Shown here: one piece after another, positions 40,133 through 56,385 of the stretch | How positions within the stretch are numbered: position 1 is the first letter of the stretch | Layout: each line of letters begins with the position of its first letter | Source: Candidatus Heimdallarchaeota archaeon | Lineage (GTDB): Archaea > Asgardarchaeota > Heimdallarchaeia > JABLTI01 | NCBI GenBank assembly: GCA_019058275.1 | Contig: JAHLVW010000066.1 | Span: 192,001-256,000 of the forward strand | Length of the DNA: 64,000 nt | Reading direction: 5' to 3' | Notes under the pieces: model-generated | Told to the model about the DNA's origin: nothing | Databases searched by the model: none | What the model saw: the letters and a program-made list of their open reading frames with translations, nothing else | Made by a program: the position numbers and the translations under genes

Positions 40133-42073
40133 TTGATTAAAAGAAAGACATTTTCAAGTTTATTTATAATAATAATAATTCTAACCGTTAGTTTTTCTTT
40201 AGAAGATATTCAGAGTAAAATACAAGTTAAACCTTATAGAAATACATTTGATAAACAAACAACAAAAGAATGGACTTGTATGATCTATTGTTATGCGGAT
40301 ACTCGATTATCATCAATACAAGATCCACAGGATAATAGTTTGAATAAGCTTTTTCTAGTCATGTATGATTCATTGTATGATTTACCTTCCCGTTTGCAAG
40401 CAGATTCTGAAACTGACATGAACATTATTGTACTATTTGATTATCCTTATACTCAAGCAAACCCATTTGGAGATGCTGAAATTTATGAAGTAACATCAAG
40501 TGAGGTCAATAAGGTTGCAGATTTGGGTGCAAAAAATATGAGTTCATGGACAGTATTGAGGGATTTCATAAGCTACTGTAAAACAAATTACCCAGCATAC
40601 CATTACTCAATAAATTTAGTCGATCATGGACATGGGTACGCAGGCTTCTGTTATGACTACCATGCTTCCCATCCTTATTGGGATTATGCTCTCGGTGATT
40701 GTTTAGAAGTTTCAGAATTAGAACTTGCTTTATCTTTGGAAGGAGGGGTTGATGTACTATTCTTAGATACTTGCTCTGGTGGTTCCTTTGAAGTTGCTTG
40801 GCAATTGTATGAAGAAGTTGATTATATGGTAGCTGGTGAAACAGTTCAAGGTTATGTTGCTTTATGTCATTTTGTTGATATATATTCACAGCTAAGCCAT
40901 GACACAAGTTCTACTCCTATAAAATTAGCTCAAATAGGGTTTAATTCTGCGAAATTTATCAATTATTATTCGCTAGTACTGGATCCGACTCATAACAATG
41001 TTGATTCCTGGGGATCTGTCACGATGTACTCTTTGAATAGATTTGAATCGTTTACAGGCGGTCCCAGTTTTAAACCGTTATTTGAAGAGCTTACAACGGA
41101 GTTGTCTTATGAATTAATGATAAATAAAACAACCGCTTTTGAATTATTTAGTAATATTAAAGGAAATCTAACAACTTCTGGATTATCTTCCAATTCACTC
41201 ATGGTTGATCTTTATAATTTTCTAGAAGTCATAATAGATTTCACTGGGCAATTTAATAACACAATTATTGAAACGAAGGTTGTTCAAGTGAAAAACCTTC
41301 TTGAACCAGGTCCTAGGTATATCATTCATGATAACTGGGTTTATTCTGAAACTGCTTTACCAGACATTCATGGTTTTTCTATATGCTTCCCTGATTCCCT
41401 TAATTTATATCAAGGATATCTCTATCCTAATTTTTATGAAGATCTTAATATCTCAGCTGATACCTATTGGGATGATTTCATTTTCAGTCTCTTCCCTCAC
41501 AATTATACTAACTTCCTCAATCCTCCCCATCTTGAATTTTATGAATTCTATCTTAACTTGATAGACCCTGTAGTTGCTCTTCATATCTATATTTATCTTG
41601 GAGATGAAATGTACCATGTTGGACTGAAAGATTCGTTAGATTTCGGAATGGGTATTGATATTGGACTAGATAAAGCTCAGTTTATGGATGACTTACTCTT
41701 TGGAAATTCATACGTTAGAATCCCAACAGCAAGTTTTCAATTTGGTGCCAAGAAAAGTTTAGACGAAACTGTTACAATGCAAGTTGTTATTAATGCAACT
41801 GGTTCTCCAACAGCAACTCAATTGGTCAATTTGACAGTAAACCATGTTAAAGATGATAAGGTTGTGTGGCACGCAAACCAAGTCACTGATTTTGAGGTAG
41901 GACAAATCATTGAATGTAATGTTACAACTGATGATGAAATAACTGATTTTGAAAAGACAGATGCATCACCAACTAAGAAATTTGAATTCGAACCAGAAAT
42001 TACCATAATTACTGTTACTACATCAATTGTGCTGTTAATAGTATTAGATAGGAGAAGAAAAAAGATCAATTGA
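40133..42073 (+). CDS. Secreted, C-terminally anchored clostripain-like (C11) cysteine peptidase
   Basis: Signal peptide; KEWT.MIY..AD, YPA.HY, DHGHG (His), LDTC (Cys), AGE; C-terminal TM + RRRKK. Confidence 0.85.
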   Translation: MIKRKTFSSLFIIIIILTVSFSLEDIQSKIQVKPYRNTFDKQTTKEWTCMIYCYADTRLSSIQDPQDNSLNKLFLVMYDSLYDLPSRLQADSETDMNIIVLFDYPYTQANPFGDAEIYEVTSSEVNKVADLGAKNMSSWTVLRDFISYCKTNYPAYHYSINLVDHGHGYAGFCYDYHASHPYWDYALGDCLEVSELELALSLEGGVDVLFLDTCSGGSFEVAWQLYEEVDYMVAGETVQGYVALCHFVDIYSQLSHDTSSTPIKLAQIGFNSAKFINYYSLVLDPTHNNVDSWGSVTMYSLNRFESFTGGPSFKPLFEELTTELSYELMINKTTAFELFSNIKGNLTTSGLSSNSLMVDLYNFLEVIIDFTGQFNNTIIETKVVQVKNLLEPGPRYIIHDNWVYSETALPDIHGFSICFPDSLNLYQGYLYPNFYEDLNISADTYWDDFIFSLFPHNYTNFLNPPHLEFYEFYLNLIDPVVALHIYIYLGDEMYHVGLKDSLDFGMGIDIGLDKAQFMDDLLFGNSYVRIPTASFQFGAKKSLDETVTMQVVINATGSPTATQLVNLTVNHVKDDKVVWHANQVTDFEVGQIIECNVTTDDEITDFEKTDASPTKKFEFEPEITIITVTTSIVLLIVLDRRRKKIN

Positions 42074-43541: not shown

Positions 43542-45569
43542 TTGTCTAACGTAAAAGAAACTATAACAGACTTCACTACAGAAGAAAGAATTATTTTAGA
43601 ATTAATAGGACAGCTATCAAGGAAACATCAAGACAAAATAAGAAACCACTATCTGAAAGAGAAAAAAATCAAGCTTAAAAAACGAAAACTAAAAGAAAAG
43701 TTCCTTAAAAAAAAGAAAGGAAAAAAACTAACTGAAAAGGAAAGAATTAGGTTTCAACTAATACCTGCAGTTCTTTCACAGGCACTAACCAAAGGTATTC
43801 CTATAAGGGAACCCAAAAGAAAGAAAAGTAGTCGTGAAGAATTAAAACCATTACTTTTTGAAGTTGAAGATAAACTGCGTTCTGATGAAAAGCTGCTAAA
43901 AAGAAGCAGCTTTACAAACCTTGATTTGGATTTAACTTTTGATAAGATATATCTGCAACGATTAGATACTAATAATAGTAAAATTCTGGTTAAACTGTTC
44001 GTTGATTGGGGATACTTGAATGAAAATAAACTTCATCTATTTATTGATTCAAATAAGGATGAAATCGCTGATTGTCAGATAGTTGTGATTGATAAAAATA
44101 CAAAATTAGTTGACATATATCCACTAAGACACATTTCAAAATTAATCGTTGATAAAGAAGAATCAGCTAATTCGTTATTTGTTGGTCAGATAGATGGTCT
44201 AGTGCCAGATGAAAAATACAAATATCGCATTGAATGTTATAAAAAATCTGATGGAAAGCTCTTTGCTGGAACCCAATTCAAAGAATTCCGAACCTCGTTC
44301 AATTTAAATGAACAAAATAAACCACTATTTTTCAGTATTAGTTCGGATTTACATAGTGGTCGTAATGGTGGATTTATGAGAGGAAATGTTAAAAGTTCTA
44401 AAATTAGTGGCAATCTTGATTTAAATAGAGTTTTTACAAGCATTGCTAAAACTGAAAATAAAGTCACTTTTGATATGGGATATTCATTAGCAATTGCAAC
44501 AGGTGATTTAACGGAAAACGCATCCTATAGTGAATATTGGGCTGATCTCTTCAAAAGATGTTCCATTTTGTGGGATCATGTTCCACTTTTAACAAGTATA
44601 GGTAACCATGATTACTATTGCGGTGGAAAAGGAAAAGGAAATATGATAGGCGGTTTAGAAGAAGATTGTCGTTATTGGCACAAATATATAACAAATCCTG
44701 TCTCTAGTTCAGGAAGTTTACTGGGTCATTGGTACTCTTTGGATCAAGGTAATATTCATGCTGTATTTTTAGATAGTAATGGAACCGGCTGGGGTAAATA
44801 CGAAATTGATTGTACAACAGAACAATGGCACTGGTTAGAAAATGACTTGAGGATTTGGCATAAAAGGGTCAATAAAGGTGAGAAAGTTCCTCAATTCTGT
44901 TTTGTTTTCTTACATTCAGCTATTATGAGCTTGGGTTTTTGGGGTCGAGGTTTCAATAGTGGTAATGATGAAAAGGCGCAATCATATCTCACACCACTCT
45001 TTAGAAAATATGGTGTTGATATGGTATTCTGCGGACATGATCATATATATCAAAGATCAAATTGGATGGGAACACTGTATCTAGAAAATGGACGACATGG
45101 TGGATCAACAAGACCATACTTTTTCTGGAAAAAAAGGAGAGCAGTATATGATATAGAAAGAATTTGTGAGGATTGGAACACAAGAATTTACACAACAATT
45201 TATGTTCCTCCAAATGCTAAACACCTAACTAGTAATGATAATATAAAAATGAAAAATTTCAAAGAAAAAGCTAGAGAGGAACTATTGTCACAACCACTTG
45301 CTAGTAATTTCTTTTTTGGTGTAAGAAGCAGCAATCAAGAAATTGGTAGATTATTTGATGAAAACTCAAAACAGAAAGAGAAACTTATTGATGAACTTAT
45401 TTTGACAAAATTAGTTGACCATGTATGGTTAAGAGCATATGCTGTAGAAGAAAACTATAAACCAGAATTTCGAGAAATCATCGATTCGATTTTTGTTAAA
45501 GCAAAAAACACAACTGAAGTTAATCAAATAAAAAATAAAATTGTTTGTCCTGAGAAAGTTGTTGAATGA
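43542..45569 (+). CDS. Metallophosphoesterase (purple acid phosphatase-like) with FN3-like domain and Lys-rich N-terminal extension
   Basis: SDLH, GDL, GNHD, FLH, GHDHIY motifs; GLVPDEKYKYRI FN3-like strand. TTG 43542 follows GGTGG (track start 43458). Confidence 0.85.
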   Translation: MSNVKETITDFTTEERIILELIGQLSRKHQDKIRNHYLKEKKIKLKKRKLKEKFLKKKKGKKLTEKERIRFQLIPAVLSQALTKGIPIREPKRKKSSREELKPLLFEVEDKLRSDEKLLKRSSFTNLDLDLTFDKIYLQRLDTNNSKILVKLFVDWGYLNENKLHLFIDSNKDEIADCQIVVIDKNTKLVDIYPLRHISKLIVDKEESANSLFVGQIDGLVPDEKYKYRIECYKKSDGKLFAGTQFKEFRTSFNLNEQNKPLFFSISSDLHSGRNGGFMRGNVKSSKISGNLDLNRVFTSIAKTENKVTFDMGYSLAIATGDLTENASYSEYWADLFKRCSILWDHVPLLTSIGNHDYYCGGKGKGNMIGGLEEDCRYWHKYITNPVSSSGSLLGHWYSLDQGNIHAVFLDSNGTGWGKYEIDCTTEQWHWLENDLRIWHKRVNKGEKVPQFCFVFLHSAIMSLGFWGRGFNSGNDEKAQSYLTPLFRKYGVDMVFCGHDHIYQRSNWMGTLYLENGRHGGSTRPYFFWKKRRAVYDIERICEDWNTRIYTTIYVPPNAKHLTSNDNIKMKNFKEKAREELLSQPLASNFFFGVRSSNQEIGRLFDENSKQKEKLIDELILTKLVDHVWLRAYAVEENYKPEFREIIDSIFVKAKNTTEVNQIKNKIVCPEKVVE

Positions 45570-45690
45570 AAAATTGAGTTCTTTTCTAAAAAGCGAAATC
45601 ATTGACATATAAAAACTAAAATTTACTTTTTAGAGGAAACTTTAAAGCAAGAAAAAACAAATTAGACCACAATTAGTCATACTTTTTTGG

Positions 45691-46980
45691 GTGTGCGATT
45701 TGACCGATATTAAGAAGAAATTACTGATATCAGAGGATAGACTAAAAGCTATCAATGATTTTTTGATAAAAGAAGACAATCCATTGATAGATGAACTTAT
45801 TGCCGTCGTAGAGAAACATGGCGGTGTGGATGAAATTAATAAGAAAGCAGCAGAAGCTCGTAATGTTGATAGTTTATTAGCTCGCTTAGATAAGAAAGAA
45901 CCAAAATATGTTAAAGATCTTACTTGGTTAGTCGAGCAACGAGATAATGATGCTTTTATCAGTATAGCTGATTATCGTCGAAAAATTCTTGGAAAAGAAG
46001 CAGATAATATTACTTTTGATGAATCATACGCTGTAACACTCGAGATTAGTGCTTGTCAATATTTCCCCTTCTTTGTCGCTCAAGCTAAACAGGCTGTAAA
46101 GAAGCAAGAGCTAATGCCTGCAAGATTCATTCGTGTTAGAAGAATGAAAGAGCAAGAAGAAGATGGAGATTTGCTTGCTATGACAGCTGCTATGCTACTA
46201 GTTGGTGCATCTTGTGTAGAAACTTTGGATACAAAAGGAACAGCACCTGGACCAGATGGTTTGCCAGTCAATATACATCTAGGTGGTCCAGCAACCATTA
46301 CCGGTTATTTCGGTGGTGTTGGTCAACCAAATGATTACGCTCTGAAATGGGTTGATGAATACCTTTACTATTATACAAAATATGGCATCCAATCAGCATT
46401 GAATATCAATCCTGGAACAGTTATTTTAGGTTATATGCTCTATAAATTAGGAGTTGATATGGTGTATAAAATATCAGTTTTTGTGGGTAATGATAATCCA
46501 TACTCTTGTTTTTGGACTCTATTAACTGCTAAGCTATTCAGTAGAGATGATGGTACAAGTCCATTAATTGGGTTTAACTTATCTAATGCAGTTAATAATA
46601 GAACAATGGAAGTAGCAGCACAATTCCGTAAGGATTTCGGATTTGAAGATGTTGTTCGTTTTGAACATCATATCACAGAAACATGGAAGAGTATTGTTCG
46701 TCAACCATATGATAGAACTGATGAACTTGTGGAATTAGCTAAAACTGTTAAGAATGTTAGTGCAAAACACGAAGGTGGAAAGCAAAAAATCGAAGAAACT
46801 CGAGAACATCAATCTGATATTTTGGATTATTTCAGAGAAAAAAGTGAGGTTATTGAAGCTGGTGATATGGATAATATGCTTATTAATTATCTCGATAAAC
46901 ACCATGCATTGAATTTCTCTGCTGATACTTTAACAAAGAATAAAATCTCTGTTTTAGCTGCCACAAATTTGCACAAATAA
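45691..46980 (+). CDS. Uncharacterised enzyme-like protein (probable TIM barrel), first gene of an operon with the DapA-Fae fusion
   Basis: Long soluble ORF with enzyme-like blocks (TLDTKGT, HLGGPATITGYFGG, KISVFVGNDN, EHHITE, KHEGG); 18 nt upstream of the next gene. Confidence 0.7.
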   Translation: MCDLTDIKKKLLISEDRLKAINDFLIKEDNPLIDELIAVVEKHGGVDEINKKAAEARNVDSLLARLDKKEPKYVKDLTWLVEQRDNDAFISIADYRRKILGKEADNITFDESYAVTLEISACQYFPFFVAQAKQAVKKQELMPARFIRVRRMKEQEEDGDLLAMTAAMLLVGASCVETLDTKGTAPGPDGLPVNIHLGGPATITGYFGGVGQPNDYALKWVDEYLYYYTKYGIQSALNINPGTVILGYMLYKLGVDMVYKISVFVGNDNPYSCFWTLLTAKLFSRDDGTSPLIGFNLSNAVNNRTMEVAAQFRKDFGFEDVVRFEHHITETWKSIVRQPYDRTDELVELAKTVKNVSAKHEGGKQKIEETREHQSDILDYFREKSEVIEAGDMDNMLINYLDKHHALNFSADTLTKNKISVLAATNLHK

Positions 46981-46998: not shown

Positions 46999-48516
46999 AT
47001 GGCAAAGAAATTCAGACCTGGAGGAGTTAGTCCAGCACTAGTTACTCCATTTACAAAAAAAGATGTACTAGATGAAGAAGCTTATCGAAAATTAATCAGA
47101 TTTGTTATAGATGATCTCGGTGTCACAGGGATTGTACCTGCTGGTTCAACTGGTGAGTTTTCATCACTATTCTGGGAAGAGCAACAGAAAGTAATTGAAA
47201 TTGCTGTAGATGAAGCAAAGGGCAAAGTAGATGTTATGGCCGGCACTGGTACAAGTGGAACAAAAAGAACTATTGAAATGACTAAGTATGCTATGGATGT
47301 TGGAGCAGACGCAGCATTAGTAGTAACACCTTATTACATGAAACCAACACAAAGAGGTCTATTCAAGCATTATTCAGCTCTAGCTGATAAAGTTGATTTT
47401 CCAATTATGCTTTATCAATTACCAGCATTAACAGATGTTGTTCTACCAAGAATGGTAGTTGAAGATTTAGCAGTAGAGCATGAGAATGTAGTAGGTATGA
47501 AATGCAGTTGGGGAAATATGGCTTATCTAATGGAAATACTTGAGAGAGTAAAGCCAGTTGCTCCTGACTTCAAAATTCTCTGTGGCTGGGATGAAATTGT
47601 CTTTCCAGCACTAGCAGGAGGAGTTGATGGATGTATCTTAGCTTCAGCTAATTTCATTGGTGATCATTGGCTCAAAATCAAGAAATTAGTTGATGAAGGA
47701 AAGCTTGAAGAAGCTAGAAAAGCTGAGATGGAGATTCATAAACTAACTCGAATTGCTGTTAAAACTGGTGCAGCTGGTACAAAAGAAGCCTTAAACATGA
47801 TGGGTGTAAAAGTAAGAAAACCAAGATTGCCATTAGAAATCGGTGGAAGTATTAGCCATGAACTTCGTTCTGAATTACGGTTAGAACTCGAGCGAATTGG
47901 TAAAATTGAAACTAAACCAATTATTGGTTTACCAAAAGCTCCTGAAAAGATTGAGGAAAGATTCGGACAAGTTGATGTTACAGCAGAAACTATCCTACAA
48001 AGTAAATTACTAATTGGTGAAGGATTCTTTGGTGGTGATCGTCCAGAAATGGCTCATATAGACCTTTTACTAGGTCCAAAAGATGGACCTGTAGGAATAG
48101 CTTTCGCAAAAGCATTAGCGTTAGTAAAAGACGACCCATCAAAAATCGAAGGTCATGAACCACTTCTAGCACTTTTAGAAACAAATGAAGCAGTGAAACC
48201 TGAGACACTATTAGTTCCAAAAGTTTTCATTAGAAACTTACGGCAAGCAGCAATGGTGTTTGGTCCAGTGCAAGCTGGTGTAGCAAAAGCAGTGATCCAA
48301 TGTGTCAAAGATGGATTTATTCCAGAGAAATATGTTAACAATATGGTTATTATTGCTTCAGTCTTTGTTCATCCAACAGCAGTATCTAGAAATAGAGTCT
48401 ATGTTAACAATCGAAAAGCAACTGTTATGGCTATTAGAAATGCTGTTGAAAAGAAACCAGATCTTGACTACTTGTTTCAAGCACCTGCAAGACATCCTTT
48501 AAAGAATGAACCTTAA
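46999..48516 (+). CDS. fae: Fusion of a DapA/NAL-family class I aldolase and a formaldehyde-activating enzyme (Fae) domain
   Basis: N-terminal ALVTPF, GSTGE, TPYY, LYQLP, GMKCS. C-terminal (from ~48007) IGEG...EMAHIDLLLGPKDGPVG.AFA.AL...GH.PLLA.L......KP.TLLVPKV......A..VFGPVQAGVAKAV...VFVHP...N..AT..AI..A. Confidence 0.88.
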   Translation: MAKKFRPGGVSPALVTPFTKKDVLDEEAYRKLIRFVIDDLGVTGIVPAGSTGEFSSLFWEEQQKVIEIAVDEAKGKVDVMAGTGTSGTKRTIEMTKYAMDVGADAALVVTPYYMKPTQRGLFKHYSALADKVDFPIMLYQLPALTDVVLPRMVVEDLAVEHENVVGMKCSWGNMAYLMEILERVKPVAPDFKILCGWDEIVFPALAGGVDGCILASANFIGDHWLKIKKLVDEGKLEEARKAEMEIHKLTRIAVKTGAAGTKEALNMMGVKVRKPRLPLEIGGSISHELRSELRLELERIGKIETKPIIGLPKAPEKIEERFGQVDVTAETILQSKLLIGEGFFGGDRPEMAHIDLLLGPKDGPVGIAFAKALALVKDDPSKIEGHEPLLALLETNEAVKPETLLVPKVFIRNLRQAAMVFGPVQAGVAKAVIQCVKDGFIPEKYVNNMVIIASVFVHPTAVSRNRVYVNNRKATVMAIRNAVEKKPDLDYLFQAPARHPLKNEP

Positions 48517-48544: not shown

Positions 48545-50287
48545 TTAAATTAATGATTTTTTGAATTTAATATAATCTTCTTTGGAAATTTCTTTTTTAC
48601 TTTTAAAATTAGATTCTTCCCAAATTGATTGTATATCATTAAATGTCAGAGAATTAGCCAAATCACTAAAGGAAATACGCATTAGAATTTCTTTTGTAAA
48701 AGGTCTTTTAGAGTTAAGAAAAACTATTGATTTAAAAAATCCTTTTGCAACTGAACTGTTTAAGATTGTACAAAAGAATAAAGCTTCGTTATAAGCTTGA
48801 AAACCTAGGAAATAACAAGTATCATCTAATAACACAGGTTTCTTGTTAATTGGTGGTATAAATGTAAATTGAACTGTTTTGTATAATCCTGCAATAGCAA
48901 CCTTAAATGGAGAAAATGTATAATCTCCAATACCAAATATAGTAAAATCGAACTTATTTTGAAAGACTCTAGATTTTCTTTTGTCAAAGTATTTTTTATT
49001 TCTTGATAGGTAATTCCAAGTTTTTGGGTATCTTTCCTTTATGTAACTTGTATCTTCACCTAATTTTGTTTGTGTCAGAAGCAATCTTTTACTAGTATTT
49101 AACACTTCAAATTTCTTCAAATTAGAACCTTTCAACAATGGATAAATCAAATCTTTCTCAATTGTGAGATTTTCATTCAATTTGTTAAAAAGCTGATTCT
49201 CCCTTTCAACTTGTAATTCAAGGATCTTCGAGCAGTCATGTTTTACACCTTGTCTCCAAGTATAATTAGATAGTTTATCAAGGAAGGAGTAATTTCTATA
49301 AGATTTAATATCTGAAACGAATTTTTCATTAATCCAACCAAATTTTCTCGTTATTTGATTTGGTGATTCAATATCACTAACATTACAATAATCATCGTTC
49401 AATCCAGGAATTAAATCAGCAAGAAATAATGAAGCATCACAATTTTTACCAAAGTTTTTTCTAGCATCAATTTTCAAAGCTCTGATATTCGAAATTGGAA
49501 ATTGGGTTTTCTGAATCTCTTTAACAAAATTCCTGATAACAGAATCTTTACAAAGAAAAGCTAATTTACCTTGATGATCTGAAAAAAGATGTAGCAATCT
49601 GGTTATGATTGATTCTGCGATATCAAAATTACTTCGACCAGTAATTGCTTCAATACCGCTAAACCCCTTAATGTTTGATTTCGTTGGTAAATTACTTGAG
49701 TTTAATGAAGATAATTCAGAAAGTGTAACCCAAGGAGGATTCCCAATGAGAAGGATATTTGCTTTTGTATCTAAAAAGATATTTTTTGCGAATTGATGAT
49801 GGAAAATATCATCTTGAAAAATTCTTATCGTATATTGATTATTTTGGCTAATTTCTTTACTACCAGCTTGTGTTATTTGCGATGCAACATAATGAAAAAT
49901 GTGTTTTTGTTGGATTTCTACCCCATAAACTTGCTTAAGATTTGTGAATTCTTCAGGTATACATTGTATGAAATGACCTAACCCAAATGTTGCTTCAATA
50001 AGTATGTAAGGATTAAAATCAATATCGATTAAGATATCATATATCTGGTTAACTAATTGGTTTGGTGTTTGGACGTCTCCCCATTCCTTTGAGATTATGT
50101 CTTGATTATGAGAAAAGGATTCATCTTTAAGATATTCAATGAAATTTCTTAAATCGATTTCATTTTTAAATAAACCAACAATATTCGTTACTGACTCAAT
50201 AAGGTTATTAGCTTTTTTAATTGATTTGGTTTGCTCTAGTCTAGTGATCAGATTTTCGGGTTTTTGATGCTCAACCAAATCAATCAA
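48545..50287 (-). CDS. N6-adenine DNA methyltransferase (gamma class, TaqI/Eco57I-like), orphan
   Basis: GDVQTP (motif X), EATFGLG (motif I), GVEI, IGNPPW (motif IV), C-terminal target-recognition region. Confidence 0.85.
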   Translation of the reverse strand: MIDLVEHQKPENLITRLEQTKSIKKANNLIESVTNIVGLFKNEIDLRNFIEYLKDESFSHNQDIISKEWGDVQTPNQLVNQIYDILIDIDFNPYILIEATFGLGHFIQCIPEEFTNLKQVYGVEIQQKHIFHYVASQITQAGSKEISQNNQYTIRIFQDDIFHHQFAKNIFLDTKANILLIGNPPWVTLSELSSLNSSNLPTKSNIKGFSGIEAITGRSNFDIAESIITRLLHLFSDHQGKLAFLCKDSVIRNFVKEIQKTQFPISNIRALKIDARKNFGKNCDASLFLADLIPGLNDDYCNVSDIESPNQITRKFGWINEKFVSDIKSYRNYSFLDKLSNYTWRQGVKHDCSKILELQVERENQLFNKLNENLTIEKDLIYPLLKGSNLKKFEVLNTSKRLLLTQTKLGEDTSYIKERYPKTWNYLSRNKKYFDKRKSRVFQNKFDFTIFGIGDYTFSPFKVAIAGLYKTVQFTFIPPINKKPVLLDDTCYFLGFQAYNEALFFCTILNSSVAKGFFKSIVFLNSKRPFTKEILMRISFSDLANSLTFNDIQSIWEESNFKSKKEISKEDYIKFKKSLI

Positions 50288-51415: not shown

Positions 51416-53584
51416 TTACTGTTTTATTAATTTAATACTACGAAGAATAAAACCGGAAATCAATATTGTAACGCCTATAATGCCCAAAATTATTACAAGA
51501 TTAGTATAACTTACTGAGAGTGGTAAATCAACGGGTAATGGTTCTAAATGCATTATAAACAACCCATCTTGATAAGAAGTAACATAAGCTATATTCTTTT
51601 GAACATAAACATCAGATAAAAGGCAGTATTCAGAAGCTAATCCAGAGGTGGGGTCAAATTTCTTAACTGGTCGATAAAGACCAACAGAACCTAGATTCTC
51701 GAGATTATGAATATTGATTATCAAAACACCATCATCACCATAGTTTATGTAAATGTGATTATTCTCATAGAAAATATTATATGCTTCTTGACAATCTATT
51801 CCTTCTGCTTCTGCATCAAAGTCATTTACAAAGGTAGGATTAGTTAAATTTGAAATGTCTAAAATAGTTAAATCTTGATAACCTGTTAAAATGAAAATAT
51901 TGTTGTTAGTTATACTAGTATCCCTAATTTCTGATATTGAATAATTGCTCGTTTGAGTTAAATTGTTATCACTTTCACTAAATATATGCAATCCATCTCC
52001 AGTAATTACAAAATAGTTATCATTCTGAAAATTAAAACTATAAGAAAATAATTCTAAGTAATAGTCCTTTTCAAGGGTAATATTATCAAGGTTTGAACAA
52101 TCATAAACAAGAATAGCTGTCTGTATATAATAATCTGTAATATTATGGTAAGTAATGAGTATATGAGCTTTTGAGTTTTTAATGTGAACTGCTAAACAAT
52201 AAATTGGACCTTGGAGTTCATATGGTATTACAGCTACTTTTGTTGGATGATCTGGATCAGAAATATCAAAAATATCCATTAAATTCTGATACCAACTTAA
52301 AAAATATGCATAGTTGCCCTCTATATACACATCCACATAAAAACTTAAACCAGAACAATATGCACTTTTTGTTTTTGGTTTTAATGGATTAGATACATCG
52401 ATTAGAACAAAACCTGCATCAATAATCATTATTGCTAAATCATCATGTACATATATACTATTGATATCACTCCCACAAAAGAATTGACCTGCAAGATAAA
52501 TTTCCATATTTTCATCATCAAAATAGAGTATACGTAAATTTGCACCATTTTCTGAGATATATAATCTGTCATTTTTCATCATTCCAATGTATGCATTATT
52601 CGGATAATAAAAGTCTAAAACTCGTGTTAAATTATTGACATCGGAAAAATCAATTACAATAATTCCATTAGAACATAGAAGAAAAGCAAGTTCGTTTTGA
52701 ATCATAATTTTATTTACATGATATGTCTTGTCTGTGAAATAGTTCACCATAATAAGCTCTGATGAATTTGAGATATCATAGAAAGAAACTCCTTTATGAG
52801 AATCAAAGCATATTAATAAGTCTTCAATAACTGCTCCTGTTTCCCCACCATACAAAGAAAGATAAGTAACAAACTGTGGATAAGTAGCATATTCAATATT
52901 TACTACTTCACATCCGTAGTACTCTGTAAGATAGAGCGTGGAATCCTTCAAAATCATATTACTAATGTAATATAAAATTCTTGTTTCATATTGTGCAATA
53001 ATTTCTGTTTTTTCGGGATTAGATACATCCAATATGAAGACATGGTCATCATAAAGAGATGCAGCATACATAAAACCATTGTCAACTATCATGATTGTGA
53101 AGTCATCCATAGTAATGTCTTGAAGAATTAATTCCGGTTTAGATGGTTTTGTAGTATCAAAAACCCTAAAACCAAAATCATTGCCAGATATGTATACATA
53201 TTCATCATCAACAACAAGACAAGTGGTTACATTACCATCAAGAAATTCTCCAATAATCTTAGATTTGGATGGTTTTGAGACATCTACAATGATAAAACCC
53301 TCTTCAACTGCTATATAGGCTAATATTTTCATTTTACTTTCGACGATTTCAAAATCAACAATTCTTCCATACATTTCATCCCATCTTCCCAAATCAATAC
53401 AATTACTCCAGTATTCTTGATTAGTCTCGAAAGGTGAATTTTTGTTGTTATCTAGATTGGTACTAATTGGTTCTTCAATTTGATTATCGAAGAAAAATCC
53501 AAATGTATAACTAAATGTCATCGAAACAATAATGAAAGCAATAAGCAAATAACAAATAGAACTGCTTTCTTTCTTTCTTAACAT
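51416..53584 (-). CDS. LVIVD-repeat surface protein with C-terminal TM anchor
   Basis: Many 'gl.IvDvSnP..P' repeats; signal/TM at the N-terminus. ATG 53584 overlaps the upstream stop (track start 53626). Confidence 0.82.
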   Translation of the reverse strand: MLRKKESSSICYLLIAFIIVSMTFSYTFGFFFDNQIEEPISTNLDNNKNSPFETNQEYWSNCIDLGRWDEMYGRIVDFEIVESKMKILAYIAVEEGFIIVDVSKPSKSKIIGEFLDGNVTTCLVVDDEYVYISGNDFGFRVFDTTKPSKPELILQDITMDDFTIMIVDNGFMYAASLYDDHVFILDVSNPEKTEIIAQYETRILYYISNMILKDSTLYLTEYYGCEVVNIEYATYPQFVTYLSLYGGETGAVIEDLLICFDSHKGVSFYDISNSSELIMVNYFTDKTYHVNKIMIQNELAFLLCSNGIIVIDFSDVNNLTRVLDFYYPNNAYIGMMKNDRLYISENGANLRILYFDDENMEIYLAGQFFCGSDINSIYVHDDLAIMIIDAGFVLIDVSNPLKPKTKSAYCSGLSFYVDVYIEGNYAYFLSWYQNLMDIFDISDPDHPTKVAVIPYELQGPIYCLAVHIKNSKAHILITYHNITDYYIQTAILVYDCSNLDNITLEKDYYLELFSYSFNFQNDNYFVITGDGLHIFSESDNNLTQTSNYSISEIRDTSITNNNIFILTGYQDLTILDISNLTNPTFVNDFDAEAEGIDCQEAYNIFYENNHIYINYGDDGVLIINIHNLENLGSVGLYRPVKKFDPTSGLASEYCLLSDVYVQKNIAYVTSYQDGLFIMHLEPLPVDLPLSVSYTNLVIILGIIGVTILISGFILRSIKLIKQ

Positions 53585-56385
53585 TTTAATCTCCTCCTTT
53601 TCTTTCCAGCATAAATTAAAATCCAAGCAAAAATTAAACCAATTGTTGCAGCAATTAGAGTAGGAATTGATATGTTAGTTGTTAGTGGTGTTTTAGTATA
53701 ATCAGGATGATCATCAGAATCAGTAGGATCAGTACCTTCTTGAACTTCCTCATAATCGGAATAACCATCATAATCCGAATCACTTCTATTAGGAGCAGTA
53801 CCAAGTAAGTATTCTTCGTAATTTGTTAATCCATCTAAATCTAGATCTTCGTTAGCATCTGTAGGATCTAAGGGATCTAGTTGATAAATTACTTCGAAAT
53901 AATCATCCATCAAATCATCATCGGTATCTACATCTAAAGGATCTGTACTATAGTAAAATATTTCGCGATAATCCAATAATTGATCAGAATCAGTATCATT
54001 AAGAATAGGACTAGTTAATGAAATAAACAATTCATAGGGATCTACTAGATAATCATCATCTGTATCTATAGTACTAGGATCAGTATTGTAATTGTTAAGT
54101 TCTAGGTTATCTGGTAATGTATCTCTATCTGAATCAGAGCTTATTGGATTAAGATTGTAGTTGTATTCTTCTAGATTAGATATTGTATCTAAATCAAAAT
54201 CCAAATTTGCATCAGAACTATTCAATGGGTCAAGATTGTAAGTAATTTCAAAATAATCACTCATCAAATCAGAATCTGAATCAATGTTATGTGGGTCAGT
54301 TAAGTATTTTGTAGTCTCCTGGTAAGTAGCTATTTGATCTGAATCATGATCCTCACCAAGAATAGCTAAACCATTGTCAAGCAATGGCAGAAAAACTGTT
54401 CCATTATCAACAGCGAAGTTATATTTATCGATACTATAGTAGTTGTAATTCATCTCTTTCCAAAATAAGATTTCTAGTTGAAGATTTGGTGGGTTACTAT
54501 TATCTACAACCCCAAATCTGACGTAATTGTCAATTGAAACAAAGTATATTGAACCATTAATAATCATAAGATCTCTAAAATCTTCATAATCATATTGTTG
54601 ATTGTAGGAGATCAATTCAAAATTCAAGATATCACTAATATTATATGTATAAATTCTCCAACGGTTTTCAATAGTATATAAGATTCCATTTGAAATCACA
54701 AACTCTGTAACATACCTTTCTAGATTGAAAATAGAAATAAGCTCTATTGATTGTAAATCTGTTTTATTAAAAATATAGTAACCATAATACTCCCAAGCAG
54801 CAATTATATAGTTATCATAAATTACAATTGATTTAATATTGTAAATATTAAAATTAGTCTTATATATTTGTAAAACATTAGTAGCATTTGTTGCATTAAA
54901 AACGTACATGTCAGTATAGCCTGTATAAATAATACTATTGTTTACAGTCAAGCACATCGTATAATGCGGTATACTTAATTCTCCTATTTTTGTTATGTTA
55001 TAAATATCTGTTAGATTCAAGATTTGGATATTCGAAGAAGTTAAAACATAACCTCTATCGTATTCAACACAAAAATCTACAAAAGTGTCTTGAAGTCGAT
55101 ATTCAGTAATGACACTCAGATTATAATAATCAGATACATTTAGAACAGATAATTTATCATTTCCAGAAACAATTAGACAATTTTCATAGAATAATGCACT
55201 TTTAAAATATTCTGTATTTGTTCTGCTTATTTCTATAAAATTATAATCATTCGTTATATTCCCTAAAAGAAATCCATCTCTCCCACATGCAAAAGCAACA
55301 GTATTATTGGAAAAATCGATATCCCAGAATCCCTCTATATTATGATCGTTTGAACTAAAGCAATCAACATAGGTAGGAATGTATGGATTACTAACATCAA
55401 TGATATAAATATTAGAATTATATTTTGATGTTAAATAGAGATAGCCATCATTATACCCTTTAATTTGCCCACCATATGTTTGCTGATCTATTTTGCTTCT
55501 AAATGATGGATTATTAGGATTACTTATATCGTATATAGTGAGATTCTGCCAATCAGTTAAATATAGAATAGTTTTATGAACAAAAAATGACTCTACGCTT
55601 TCCAAATACACCATTTCATGAATCTTAATTGGATTTACAAGATTAGATATGTCAATGATTGTAATATCATTGTATCTATTTAAAATATAGATATAATCTT
55701 CAACAATTTGCATATTCTCCCCATAAATTATATTTTCATACTGACCAACTAAATGATAATTAAATGGATCACTGAAATCAAATATTAATAGGCCATCATA
55801 TTCAGATAAAATGAACATATAGCTTGAGTTTACAAAGAAATCTATAATATTATAATAAAAAAAGCTAGTTAAATAAATTGGATTTTCAGGATTACTAATA
55901 TTATAAATCTCTATTTTTTGTATTTCCCATTTGAAAGAATTTTCGATTATAAATCCTAAATAAGCCAAATTATTATCAATTTCTACTTTTTCTAGTCTGT
56001 TTACCTCTAAGTGTTCGGTCTTAGAACTTATTATTGGCTCACTTTTATTACTAATATTTATACTAATGAATCCTGATACATCTGTTAAGAATATCCAATC
56101 ATCTTCTACTTCAATTGATCGCACTTCTACAAAAGGATTGTCGTTCCAAATGTCGATTTCAGAATAGTTGTAAATGTCATTAGAATTATGTAGTGCAGAT
56201 TGCTTAATCTCTTCAGATTTTTGATCAAGAGATTCAGATAATGAGCTTTCAATCGTGTTTAAACCATAATCCCTAAAATTAAAACTATTCGTTATTGTAA
56301 TTGGAATTAAAAGCATTAATGTGAAAACAACTAAGAGAATTCTAAACCTCGTATCTCTAAATCTAATAACATTTAACAATTCCAT
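53578..56385 (-). CDS. LVIVD-repeat surface protein with Ca2+-binding DxDxD (thrombospondin type-3-like) repeats and TM anchor
   Basis: LVIVD blades; about 10 'D.D.D.l.d..E....tdP' repeats at ~53715-54350; TM + KKRRR tail. Confidence 0.85.
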   Translation of the reverse strand: MELLNVIRFRDTRFRILLVVFTLMLLIPITITNSFNFRDYGLNTIESSLSESLDQKSEEIKQSALHNSNDIYNYSEIDIWNDNPFVEVRSIEVEDDWIFLTDVSGFISINISNKSEPIISSKTEHLEVNRLEKVEIDNNLAYLGFIIENSFKWEIQKIEIYNISNPENPIYLTSFFYYNIIDFFVNSSYMFILSEYDGLLIFDFSDPFNYHLVGQYENIIYGENMQIVEDYIYILNRYNDITIIDISNLVNPIKIHEMVYLESVESFFVHKTILYLTDWQNLTIYDISNPNNPSFRSKIDQQTYGGQIKGYNDGYLYLTSKYNSNIYIIDVSNPYIPTYVDCFSSNDHNIEGFWDIDFSNNTVAFACGRDGFLLGNITNDYNFIEISRTNTEYFKSALFYENCLIVSGNDKLSVLNVSDYYNLSVITEYRLQDTFVDFCVEYDRGYVLTSSNIQILNLTDIYNITKIGELSIPHYTMCLTVNNSIIYTGYTDMYVFNATNATNVLQIYKTNFNIYNIKSIVIYDNYIIAAWEYYGYYIFNKTDLQSIELISIFNLERYVTEFVISNGILYTIENRWRIYTYNISDILNFELISYNQQYDYEDFRDLMIINGSIYFVSIDNYVRFGVVDNSNPPNLQLEILFWKEMNYNYYSIDKYNFAVDNGTVFLPLLDNGLAILGEDHDSDQIATYQETTKYLTDPHNIDSDSDLMSDYFEITYNLDPLNSSDANLDFDLDTISNLEEYNYNLNPISSDSDRDTLPDNLELNNYNTDPSTIDTDDDYLVDPYELFISLTSPILNDTDSDQLLDYREIFYYSTDPLDVDTDDDLMDDYFEVIYQLDPLDPTDANEDLDLDGLTNYEEYLLGTAPNRSDSDYDGYSDYEEVQEGTDPTDSDDHPDYTKTPLTTNISIPTLIAATIGLIFAWILIYAGKKRRRLKC

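Follow-up and report, generated by a model that had tools for sequence, protein, structure and literature searches.

An aldolase fused to formaldehyde-activating enzyme in Asgard archaea and Bathyarchaeia, a candidate entry from methylene-tetrahydromethanopterin and pyruvate into homoserine and threonine synthesis

In a 64,000-nucleotide stretch of a Candidatus Heimdallarchaeota archaeon contig (the whole of which is referred to here as the window), a single open reading frame (ORF), P0001, encodes a DHDPS-family aldolase of the DapA type joined to a formaldehyde-activating enzyme (Fae). We are highly confident that this fusion is not the lysine-pathway enzyme DapA (4-hydroxy-tetrahydrodipicolinate synthase). 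On balance, it is probably a pyruvate-formaldehyde aldolase coupled to methylene-tetrahydromethanopterin (methylene-H4MPT), which supplies the synthesis of homoserine and threonine with a new TIM-barrel protein, P0122, encoded directly upstream, as its partner. Somewhat less securely, we propose that many Asgard archaea and Bathyarchaeia, and some Thermoplasmata and Anaerolineae, may dispense with the aspartate pathway and form homoserine and threonine from methylene-H4MPT and pyruvate, with P0122 or a remote homolog, A3, replacing homoserine kinase. The fusion and its parts are located in the window as follows.

46999..48516, + strand: aldolase-Fae fusion ORF (P0001), 505 amino acids (aa), translation without an internal stop
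47020..47880, + strand: DHDPS-family class I (Schiff-base) aldolase domain, aa 8-294, PF00701
47428..47430, + strand: Leu144 codon, at the DapA Arg138 position by alignment
47500..47502, + strand: Lys168 codon, the Schiff-base lysine (E. coli DapA K161 position) by alignment to the Methanocaldococcus jannaschii DHDPS lysine
47896..48009, + strand: interdomain linker, aa 300-337, of low model confidence and variable in the alignment
48013..48486, + strand: Fae domain, aa 339-496, PF08714, with His353 of AHIDL at codon 48055-48057

Both domains were detected by Pfam profile searches, the DHDPS domain PF00701 at aa 8-294 (E 4e-72) and the Fae domain PF08714 at aa 339-496 (E 2e-49, profile positions 1-151 of 159), and the NCBIfam Fae equivalog domain TIGR03126 scored 167 bits against a cut-off of 118. 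An initial inspection of the letters and their translations (the sequence-only reading) had described a DapA-type barrel with its pyruvate-binding, tyrosine, and Schiff-base lysine motifs, a complete Fae domain, and a leucine in place of E. coli DapA Arg138, and all of these were located where it had put them: GSTGE at residues 49-53, TPYY at 110-113, LYQLPAL at 138-144, GMKCS with Lys168, and AHIDL with His353. The best solved relatives of the aldolase half were the DHDPS structures 2yxg (M. jannaschii, 178 bits) and 2ehh (Aquifex). In the alignment to 2yxg, GSTGE, TPYY, Tyr139 of LYQLP, and Lys168 matched their counterparts, and Leu144 occupied the place of the Arg in PSRT. The Fae half aligned to Methylorubrum extorquens Fae (1y5y), with AHIDL and FGPxQ retained. 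Judged by these residues, both halves look catalytically intact. The structure model was confident for the aldolase domain (predicted local distance difference test, pLDDT, mostly >90), and pLDDT fell below 50 at residues 307-323 and 327-335 of the linker, which is disordered in the model; with a predicted template modeling score (pTM) of 0.67, no fixed domain arrangement is predicted.

The fused frame was also recovered in independent assemblies. Contigs from four sediment-metagenome runs spanned the whole 3 kb of the locus. One was identical to the window and may be the source sample; the other three, two of which look like one data set filed twice, carried 6 or 10 substitutions, no indels, and no new stops, in agreement with an intact 505-aa frame without a stop between the domains.

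Public databases call relatives of the fusion DapA, a name explained by the score of P0001 against the NCBIfam dapA equivalog TIGR00674, which barely passes the cut-off (213.5 bits against 206.15). In E. coli DapA, Arg138 binds the carboxylate of aspartate semialdehyde. Among 36 aligned members of the fusion family, this position held C, V, L, or M and in no case Arg. G[TS]TGEF and the Tyr of LYN were invariant (36/36), the Schiff-base Lys (KDSSG) was kept in 35/36, and Phe54 and Arg251 were invariant across the family; single-copy members keep AHIDL and FGPxQ and have a common C-terminal tail, ARHPF[KR]xxP. In a maximum-likelihood tree of aldolase halves, 43/43 fusions fell into one clade (support 94/92), and the dapB-linked standalone DapA proteins of Lokiarchaeia-type genomes formed a separate group (support 100/100).

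The genome that holds the window (the host genome) is a metagenome-assembled genome (MAG) of 4.1 Mb with ~32% GC, 92.8% completeness, and 6.8% contamination. It yielded no match to DapB_C, no match to Semialdhyde_dhC (Asd/ArgC type), no homoserine dehydrogenase (Hom), and neither ThrB nor the ApgM-type proposed homoserine kinase; Hom, ThrB, the ApgM-type kinase, and DapB were likewise not found in the same-genus genomes sampled in the phylum searches. Two other DHDPS-family paralogs are encoded in the host genome, both lacking GTTGE, the active-site Tyr, and the Arg138 equivalent. Since these paralogs lack the motifs and Asd was not found, the genome appears to have no credible lysine DapA and no supply of aspartate semialdehyde. 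The standalone paralogs lie at G000:C107:1273-2121 (L004:1219-2142) and G000:C1:86555-87412 (L005:1438-2376), and one of them adjoins a beta-Ala-His dipeptidase-like gene. The H4MPT one-carbon (C1) genes that were searched for, RFAP synthase, Mtd, Mch (two copies), and Ftr (two copies), were all present, and a canonical Fae-Hps (NCBIfam NF009833, 520 bits) is encoded separately on contig C55. A full-length ThrC-like gene (PRK05638, 359 bits) was also found, so that the host genome does have a putative consumer of phosphohomoserine, and PanB is among its genes as well.

Distribution of these genes was then compared across Asgard samples of 201 genomes (fusion, Hom, ThrC, and ThrB) and 171 genomes (DapB), in which families are labeled f1, f2, f10, f13, and so on. 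DapB occurred only in f13 (27/30) and f26 (1/3) and was not found in f1, f10 (0/33), f12, f16 (0/19), f17, f19, f21, or f24. Six f13 genomes were checked, and in each of them a distinct, standalone dapA of 305 aa adjoins dapB. The absence of an Arg at position 138 throughout the family, the lack of DapB, Asd, and Hom in the host genome, the separate clade, and the f13 genomes in which DapB comes with its own dapA all bear out the earlier claim that the fusion is not a lysine-pathway DHDPS.

The single-ORF aldolase-Fae architecture recurs in hundreds of assemblies, across Asgard archaea, Bathyarchaeia, Thermoplasmata, and Anaerolineae. Full-length relatives were found in records labeled Heimdall-, Hod-, Borr-, Atabey-, and Loki- (Promethearchaeota) and Thorarchaeota and in very many Bathyarchaeia, with one record each labeled Odinarchaeota, Methanofastidiosia, and Thermoplasmata; bacterial carriers were MAGs of Anaerolineae/Chloroflexota and Thermodesulfobacteriota. 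The closest protein relatives of P0001 belong to records labeled Heimdallarchaeota. A literature search identified no paper that joins Fae with DHDPS/DapA or describes this fusion, in line with the sequence-only reading, which knew of no characterized example, and no discussion of a gap in Hom or threonine genes of Asgard archaea; MAG surveys of Bathyarchaeia tally 'fae' without remarking on the fusion. The fusion is a widespread, uncharacterized family mislabeled as DapA.

Two tandem fusion paralogs occur in Thor-type genomes (f10, L035-L039), Thermoplasmata, and Chloroflexota (also L033, L034, L122, and L125-L129). The AHID His and the C-terminal tail are missing from the short copy; the long one has retained AHVDL and lost FGPxQ. 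In the tree, members of each paralog type cluster together even when they come from different taxa. These features point to an old duplication, to a hetero-oligomer that may share Fae sites between its subunits, and to transfer between archaea and bacteria.

The fusion is anti-correlated with Hom in two phyla. By approximate hand counts, the 201 Asgard genomes comprised 14 with both the fusion and Hom, 87 with the fusion only, 60 with Hom only, and 40 with neither; the corresponding counts for an independent sample of 101 Bathyarchaeia genomes were 4, 23, 59, and 15, and the Hom matches in the four overlapping Bathyarchaeia genomes were low-scoring. Hom was rare in most fusion-bearing families (f1, 0/3; f10, 2/43; f16, 0/19; f17, 0/3; f24, 0/3) and common in fusion-free families (f2, 15/21; f3, 5/7; f4, 8/10; f7, 4/4; f8, 2/2; f11, 5/5; f22, 5/6). 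Outside Asgard archaea, none of five large or closed fusion-bearing genomes had Hom. ThrC-like genes were present in 180/201 Asgard genomes, including all fusion families.

Known homoserine kinases had a narrower distribution. Canonical ThrB was found in 15/201 Asgard genomes and the ApgM-type kinase above cut-off in 22 of 201 (f22, 6/6; f11, 3/5; f19, 3/5; and ten f13 genomes), indicating that most Asgard archaea lack a recognized homoserine kinase. Within f13, genomes carry either Hom and the ApgM-type kinase or the fusion and P0122, and in eight of the ten ApgM-positive f13 genomes Hom was present and the fusion and P0122 were not found. At the family level, five combinations were seen: Hom with ThrB, Hom with the ApgM-type kinase, Hom with P0122, the fusion with P0122, and the fusion with A3. 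ThrC-like genes accompany nearly all families that show them. The simplest reading of these complementary combinations is that the fusion would supply the homoserine skeleton as Hom does and that P0122 or A3 would fill the role of homoserine kinase.

P0122 lies immediately ahead of the fusion in the window, and further loci of its family were located elsewhere.

45691..46980, + strand: upstream partner gene P0122, 429 aa, TIM-barrel protein, family unassigned
45570..45690, + strand: AT-rich intergenic stretch ahead of the P0122/fusion two-gene unit, presumed promoter from reading of the sequence
L042:970-2253 and L045:5952-7244: further P0122-family loci

The preceding ORF ends at 45569, just ahead of the intergenic stretch. 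Eighteen nucleotides separate the P0122 stop from the fusion start, and a GGGAG motif precedes the fusion ATG. P0122 matched no Pfam or NCBIfam family. Its homologs number >8000, with ~67% identity across Asgard classes and few distant relatives. The AlphaFold2 model (pLDDT 88.6) has a helical N-terminal domain and a beta/alpha (TIM) barrel. Structure searches returned only generic TIM barrels and no specific family: Foldseek gave weak matches to DAHP synthase and class II aldolases (E ~2e-4, TM 0.3-0.45), and VIA-align gave a flat list of TIM barrels (Z up to 12.7). An ESM Atlas feature search for P0122 gave no usable match.

Gene context was more specific. P0122 stands directly upstream of the fusion in f1, f13, f26, Loki genomes, and Bathyarchaeia. 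In f10, it lies beside, and divergent from, a 500-aa threonine synthase (ThrC). In the fusion-free families f2 and f4, it opens an operon of P0122, a class I aminotransferase, Hom (431 bits), an AOR-family oxidoreductase, and a PatB C-S lyase. P0122 was found in families in which known homoserine kinases were not, and its phyletic pattern complements those of ThrB and the ApgM-type kinase. P0122 is a candidate for a homoserine-activating enzyme, either a non-orthologous homoserine kinase or one of another kind. As a separate observation, the AOR-family gene directly follows Hom in fusion-free Heimdall-class genomes (L042:4550-6340 (+) and L043:6960-8759 (+)); its product may use ferredoxin to convert aspartate to aspartate semialdehyde and back, which would circumvent aspartate kinase and Asd.

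A second family without a Pfam match, A3 (~315 aa), takes the place of P0122 upstream of the fusion in f12, f16, f17, f21, f24, Thermoplasmata, Methanofastidiosia, Anaerolineae, and a few Bathyarchaeia. It is absent from the host genome. Its loci include the following.

L027:9734-10681 (-), L023:9929-10876 (-), L034:7340-8287 (+), L010:6862-7854 (+), and L126-L128: A3 loci

Comparison of A3 with the P0122 barrel by hhalign gave an E-value of 1e-4 (probability 58%), with the common motifs hEIS and FK[IV]S[VI]FxG[NH]xNP. Among Asgard archaea, A3 is confined to fusion-bearing families (the P0122-negative ones and f19), bar one weak match in f22. Either P0122 or A3 lies beside the fusion in ~66 of the best 80 species-level loci. 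In Pfam-labeled neighborhoods of three distant fusion loci (from an Atabeyarchaeum, a Borrarchaeum, and a Bathyarchaeon), no conserved neighbor was seen; Pfam labels missed the conserved partners because these have no Pfam family, and they emerged after clustering of ORFs. Atlas features of A3 fell into U32-peptidase-like clusters. A reading of A3 as a UbiU/V-type Fe-S hydroxylase was dropped, as neither alignment (A1, A3) contains an invariant Cys.

We propose the following route. Fae (EC 4.2.1.147) interconverts formaldehyde plus H4MPT and methylene-H4MPT. The C-terminal Fae domain would bind methylene-H4MPT and run this reaction in reverse, freeing formaldehyde locally and delivering it at the aldolase without letting it build up. 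In the N-terminal class I aldolase, the pyruvate enamine on Lys168 would add to formaldehyde to give 4-hydroxy-2-oxobutanoate (HOB). We favor HOB as the product on the analogy of Fae-Hps and in view of class I pyruvate aldolase chemistry, since no other 4-hydroxy-2-oxo acid combines pyruvate with formaldehyde. An aminotransferase would convert HOB to homoserine, P0122 (or A3) would take the step usually done by homoserine kinase, and threonine synthase would then yield threonine. The fusion and P0122 would together stand in for the homoserine dehydrogenase and homoserine kinase pair. The sequence-only reading had already suggested the reversible conversion of pyruvate and formaldehyde to HOB with a link to homoserine; this part fits the anti-correlation with Hom and the gene neighbors and is kept here as a proposal, and biosynthesis is favored over the catabolic options that it listed.

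Fae-Hps (5,6,7,8-tetrahydromethanopterin hydro-lyase/3-hexulose-6-phosphate synthase; NF009833) provides an established precedent for joining Fae to an aldolase that handles formaldehyde. In both proteins, Fae is joined to a formaldehyde-using, aldolase-type enzyme, and a toxic C1 unit passes (in P0001, would pass) between a C-C bond enzyme and H4MPT. They differ in that the partner of Fae is a Schiff-base DHDPS barrel in the fusion and the OMP-decarboxylase-family Hps in Fae-Hps, in that the domain order is reversed, with Fae C-terminal in the fusion, and in the carbon partner, proposed to be pyruvate rather than ribulose 5-phosphate; the proposed direction also differs, being release of C1 from H4MPT for biosynthesis. 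The aldolase half itself is closest to DapA/DHDPS (EC 4.3.3.7; M. jannaschii 2yxg), with which it shares the fold, pyruvate motif, Tyr, and Schiff-base Lys, but it lacks the aspartate-semialdehyde-binding Arg, occurs in a genome without DapB or Asd, falls in a separate clade, and carries the added Fae domain. DHDPS enzymes generally form tetramers, and Fae forms a homopentamer. PanB likewise transfers a formaldehyde-level C1 unit from a methylene-pterin onto C3 of a 2-oxo acid, but it has another fold, another cofactor (methylene-tetrahydrofolate), and another acceptor; it coexists with the fusion (f10, 37/43; f16, 18/19) and hence is not replaced by it. For this reason, a role of the fusion as a PanB analogue making ketopantoate with methylene-H4MPT was rejected.

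The proposed HOB reaction has a precedent in the synthetic homoserine cycle, in which pyruvate and formaldehyde are condensed to HOB by promiscuous E. coli RhmA, followed by transamination, a kinase, and threonine synthase (reviewed in PMC8879981). RhmA is a metal-dependent class II aldolase that performs this reaction as a side activity, with free formaldehyde, in an engineered pathway, whereas the fusion would be a dedicated class I aldolase that receives C1 from H4MPT in a natural one.

Several alternatives were weighed. The aldolase could act in the catabolic direction, splitting HOB that arises when homoserine, threonine-related compounds, or tetronate-type sugar acids are broken down; the products would be pyruvate and formaldehyde, and Fae would trap the latter on H4MPT for oxidation or assimilation. 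This follows the logic of Fae-Hps, in which Fae consumes released formaldehyde; condensation is the favored direction of Fae; and Mtd, Mch, and Ftr of the host genome could oxidize methylene-H4MPT. We nevertheless consider it rather unlikely, since one would not expect such an enzyme to take over from biosynthetic Hom in two phyla or to have a partner gene in common with ThrC and Hom operons, and no homoserine source or dehydratase gene lay alongside the fusion in the loci examined.

About equally unlikely is a different acceptor or product, with C1 added onto another 2-oxo acid, or HOB passing to methionine (as a 4-substituted 2-oxobutanoate) or a cofactor, and P0122 acting on that product. 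The substrates are ones that we infer, the PatB C-S lyase in the P0122-Hom operon of f4 hints at methionine, and the family-invariant Phe54 and Arg251 have no assigned role. However, ketopantoate formation is improbable given the co-occurring PanB (in the host genome itself as well as in f10 and f16), G[TS]TGE and Tyr139 are features of pyruvate aldolases, and the gene context points to Hom and ThrC.

Much less probable still is that Fae is a non-catalytic oligomerization or regulatory module and that the substrate of the aldolase is an ordinary aldehyde with no connection to C1 carriers. The tandem paralogs have each lost different Fae motifs, and the disordered linker and the pTM of 0.67 fit such a role, but single-copy forms including P0001 keep both Fae motifs and exceed the Fae equivalog cut-off, complementary losses in the paralogs are better explained by a hetero-oligomer whose subunits share sites than by decay, and every H4MPT gene searched for is present in the host genome. 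A genuine lysine DapA with an additional Fae domain is close to refuted: its TIGR00674 score, closest solved structures, and database name speak for it, and the missing Arg, the lack of DapB and Asd in the host genome, the lack of DapB in eight fusion families, and the standalone dapA genes beside dapB in f13, from which the fusions form a clade apart, speak against it.

Other points weigh against the biosynthetic route that we favor. The substrates of the fusion, its reaction direction, and the role of P0122 are our interpretation of what was observed, namely the domain architecture, the retention of catalytic residues and loss of Arg, the H4MPT genes, and the phyletic and neighborhood patterns. 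The equilibrium of Fae favors methylene-H4MPT, and for a reverse run the reaction has to be drawn by the aldol addition. Near the fusion, no aminotransferase dedicated to HOB was identified, and P0122 has no recognizable kinase features and only generic TIM-barrel matches. Active-site motifs are atypical in the genus to which P0001 belongs, with KCSWG for KDSSG and YQLPALTD for YNIPQCTG. Related genomes are not independent, so that the two-by-two counts overstate the case and constitute a pattern, not a statistical test. The fusion and Hom are held together in f19, f12, f21, and seven f13 genomes, and f20 and f23 carry a ThrC-like gene with neither. Gene absences in the host MAG are provisional, given its completeness and contamination, and the check for H4MPT genes covered the host genome.

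Further genes lie around the fusion. Convergent with it is a 580-aa ORF at 48545-50287 (-), whose only match, faint and below cut-off (E 6e-4), was to class II ribonucleotide reductase, in the N-terminal domain. The flanks at 51416-56385 (-) and 40133-42073 (+) encode a clostripain-family (C11) peptidase and two large LVIVD-repeat proteins next to each other, one of 736 aa and one of 935 aa that also has a bacterial TSP3 repeat; these flanking genes appear unrelated to the fusion.

If the proposed function is correct, the fusion would be the first natural counterpart of a step in the engineered homoserine cycle, so far known only as a laboratory design, and part of an unrecognized route in which the skeleton of an essential amino acid is assembled directly out of the Wood-Ljungdahl/H4MPT C1 pool. 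It would correct a systematic mislabel affecting hundreds of proteins called DapA, as well as the Fae counts of MAG surveys, which include the fusion, and synthetic methylotrophy would gain a dedicated, carrier-coupled formaldehyde-pyruvate aldolase. For Asgard archaea and Bathyarchaeia, it would fill the homoserine dehydrogenase and homoserine kinase gaps in their metabolic reconstructions.

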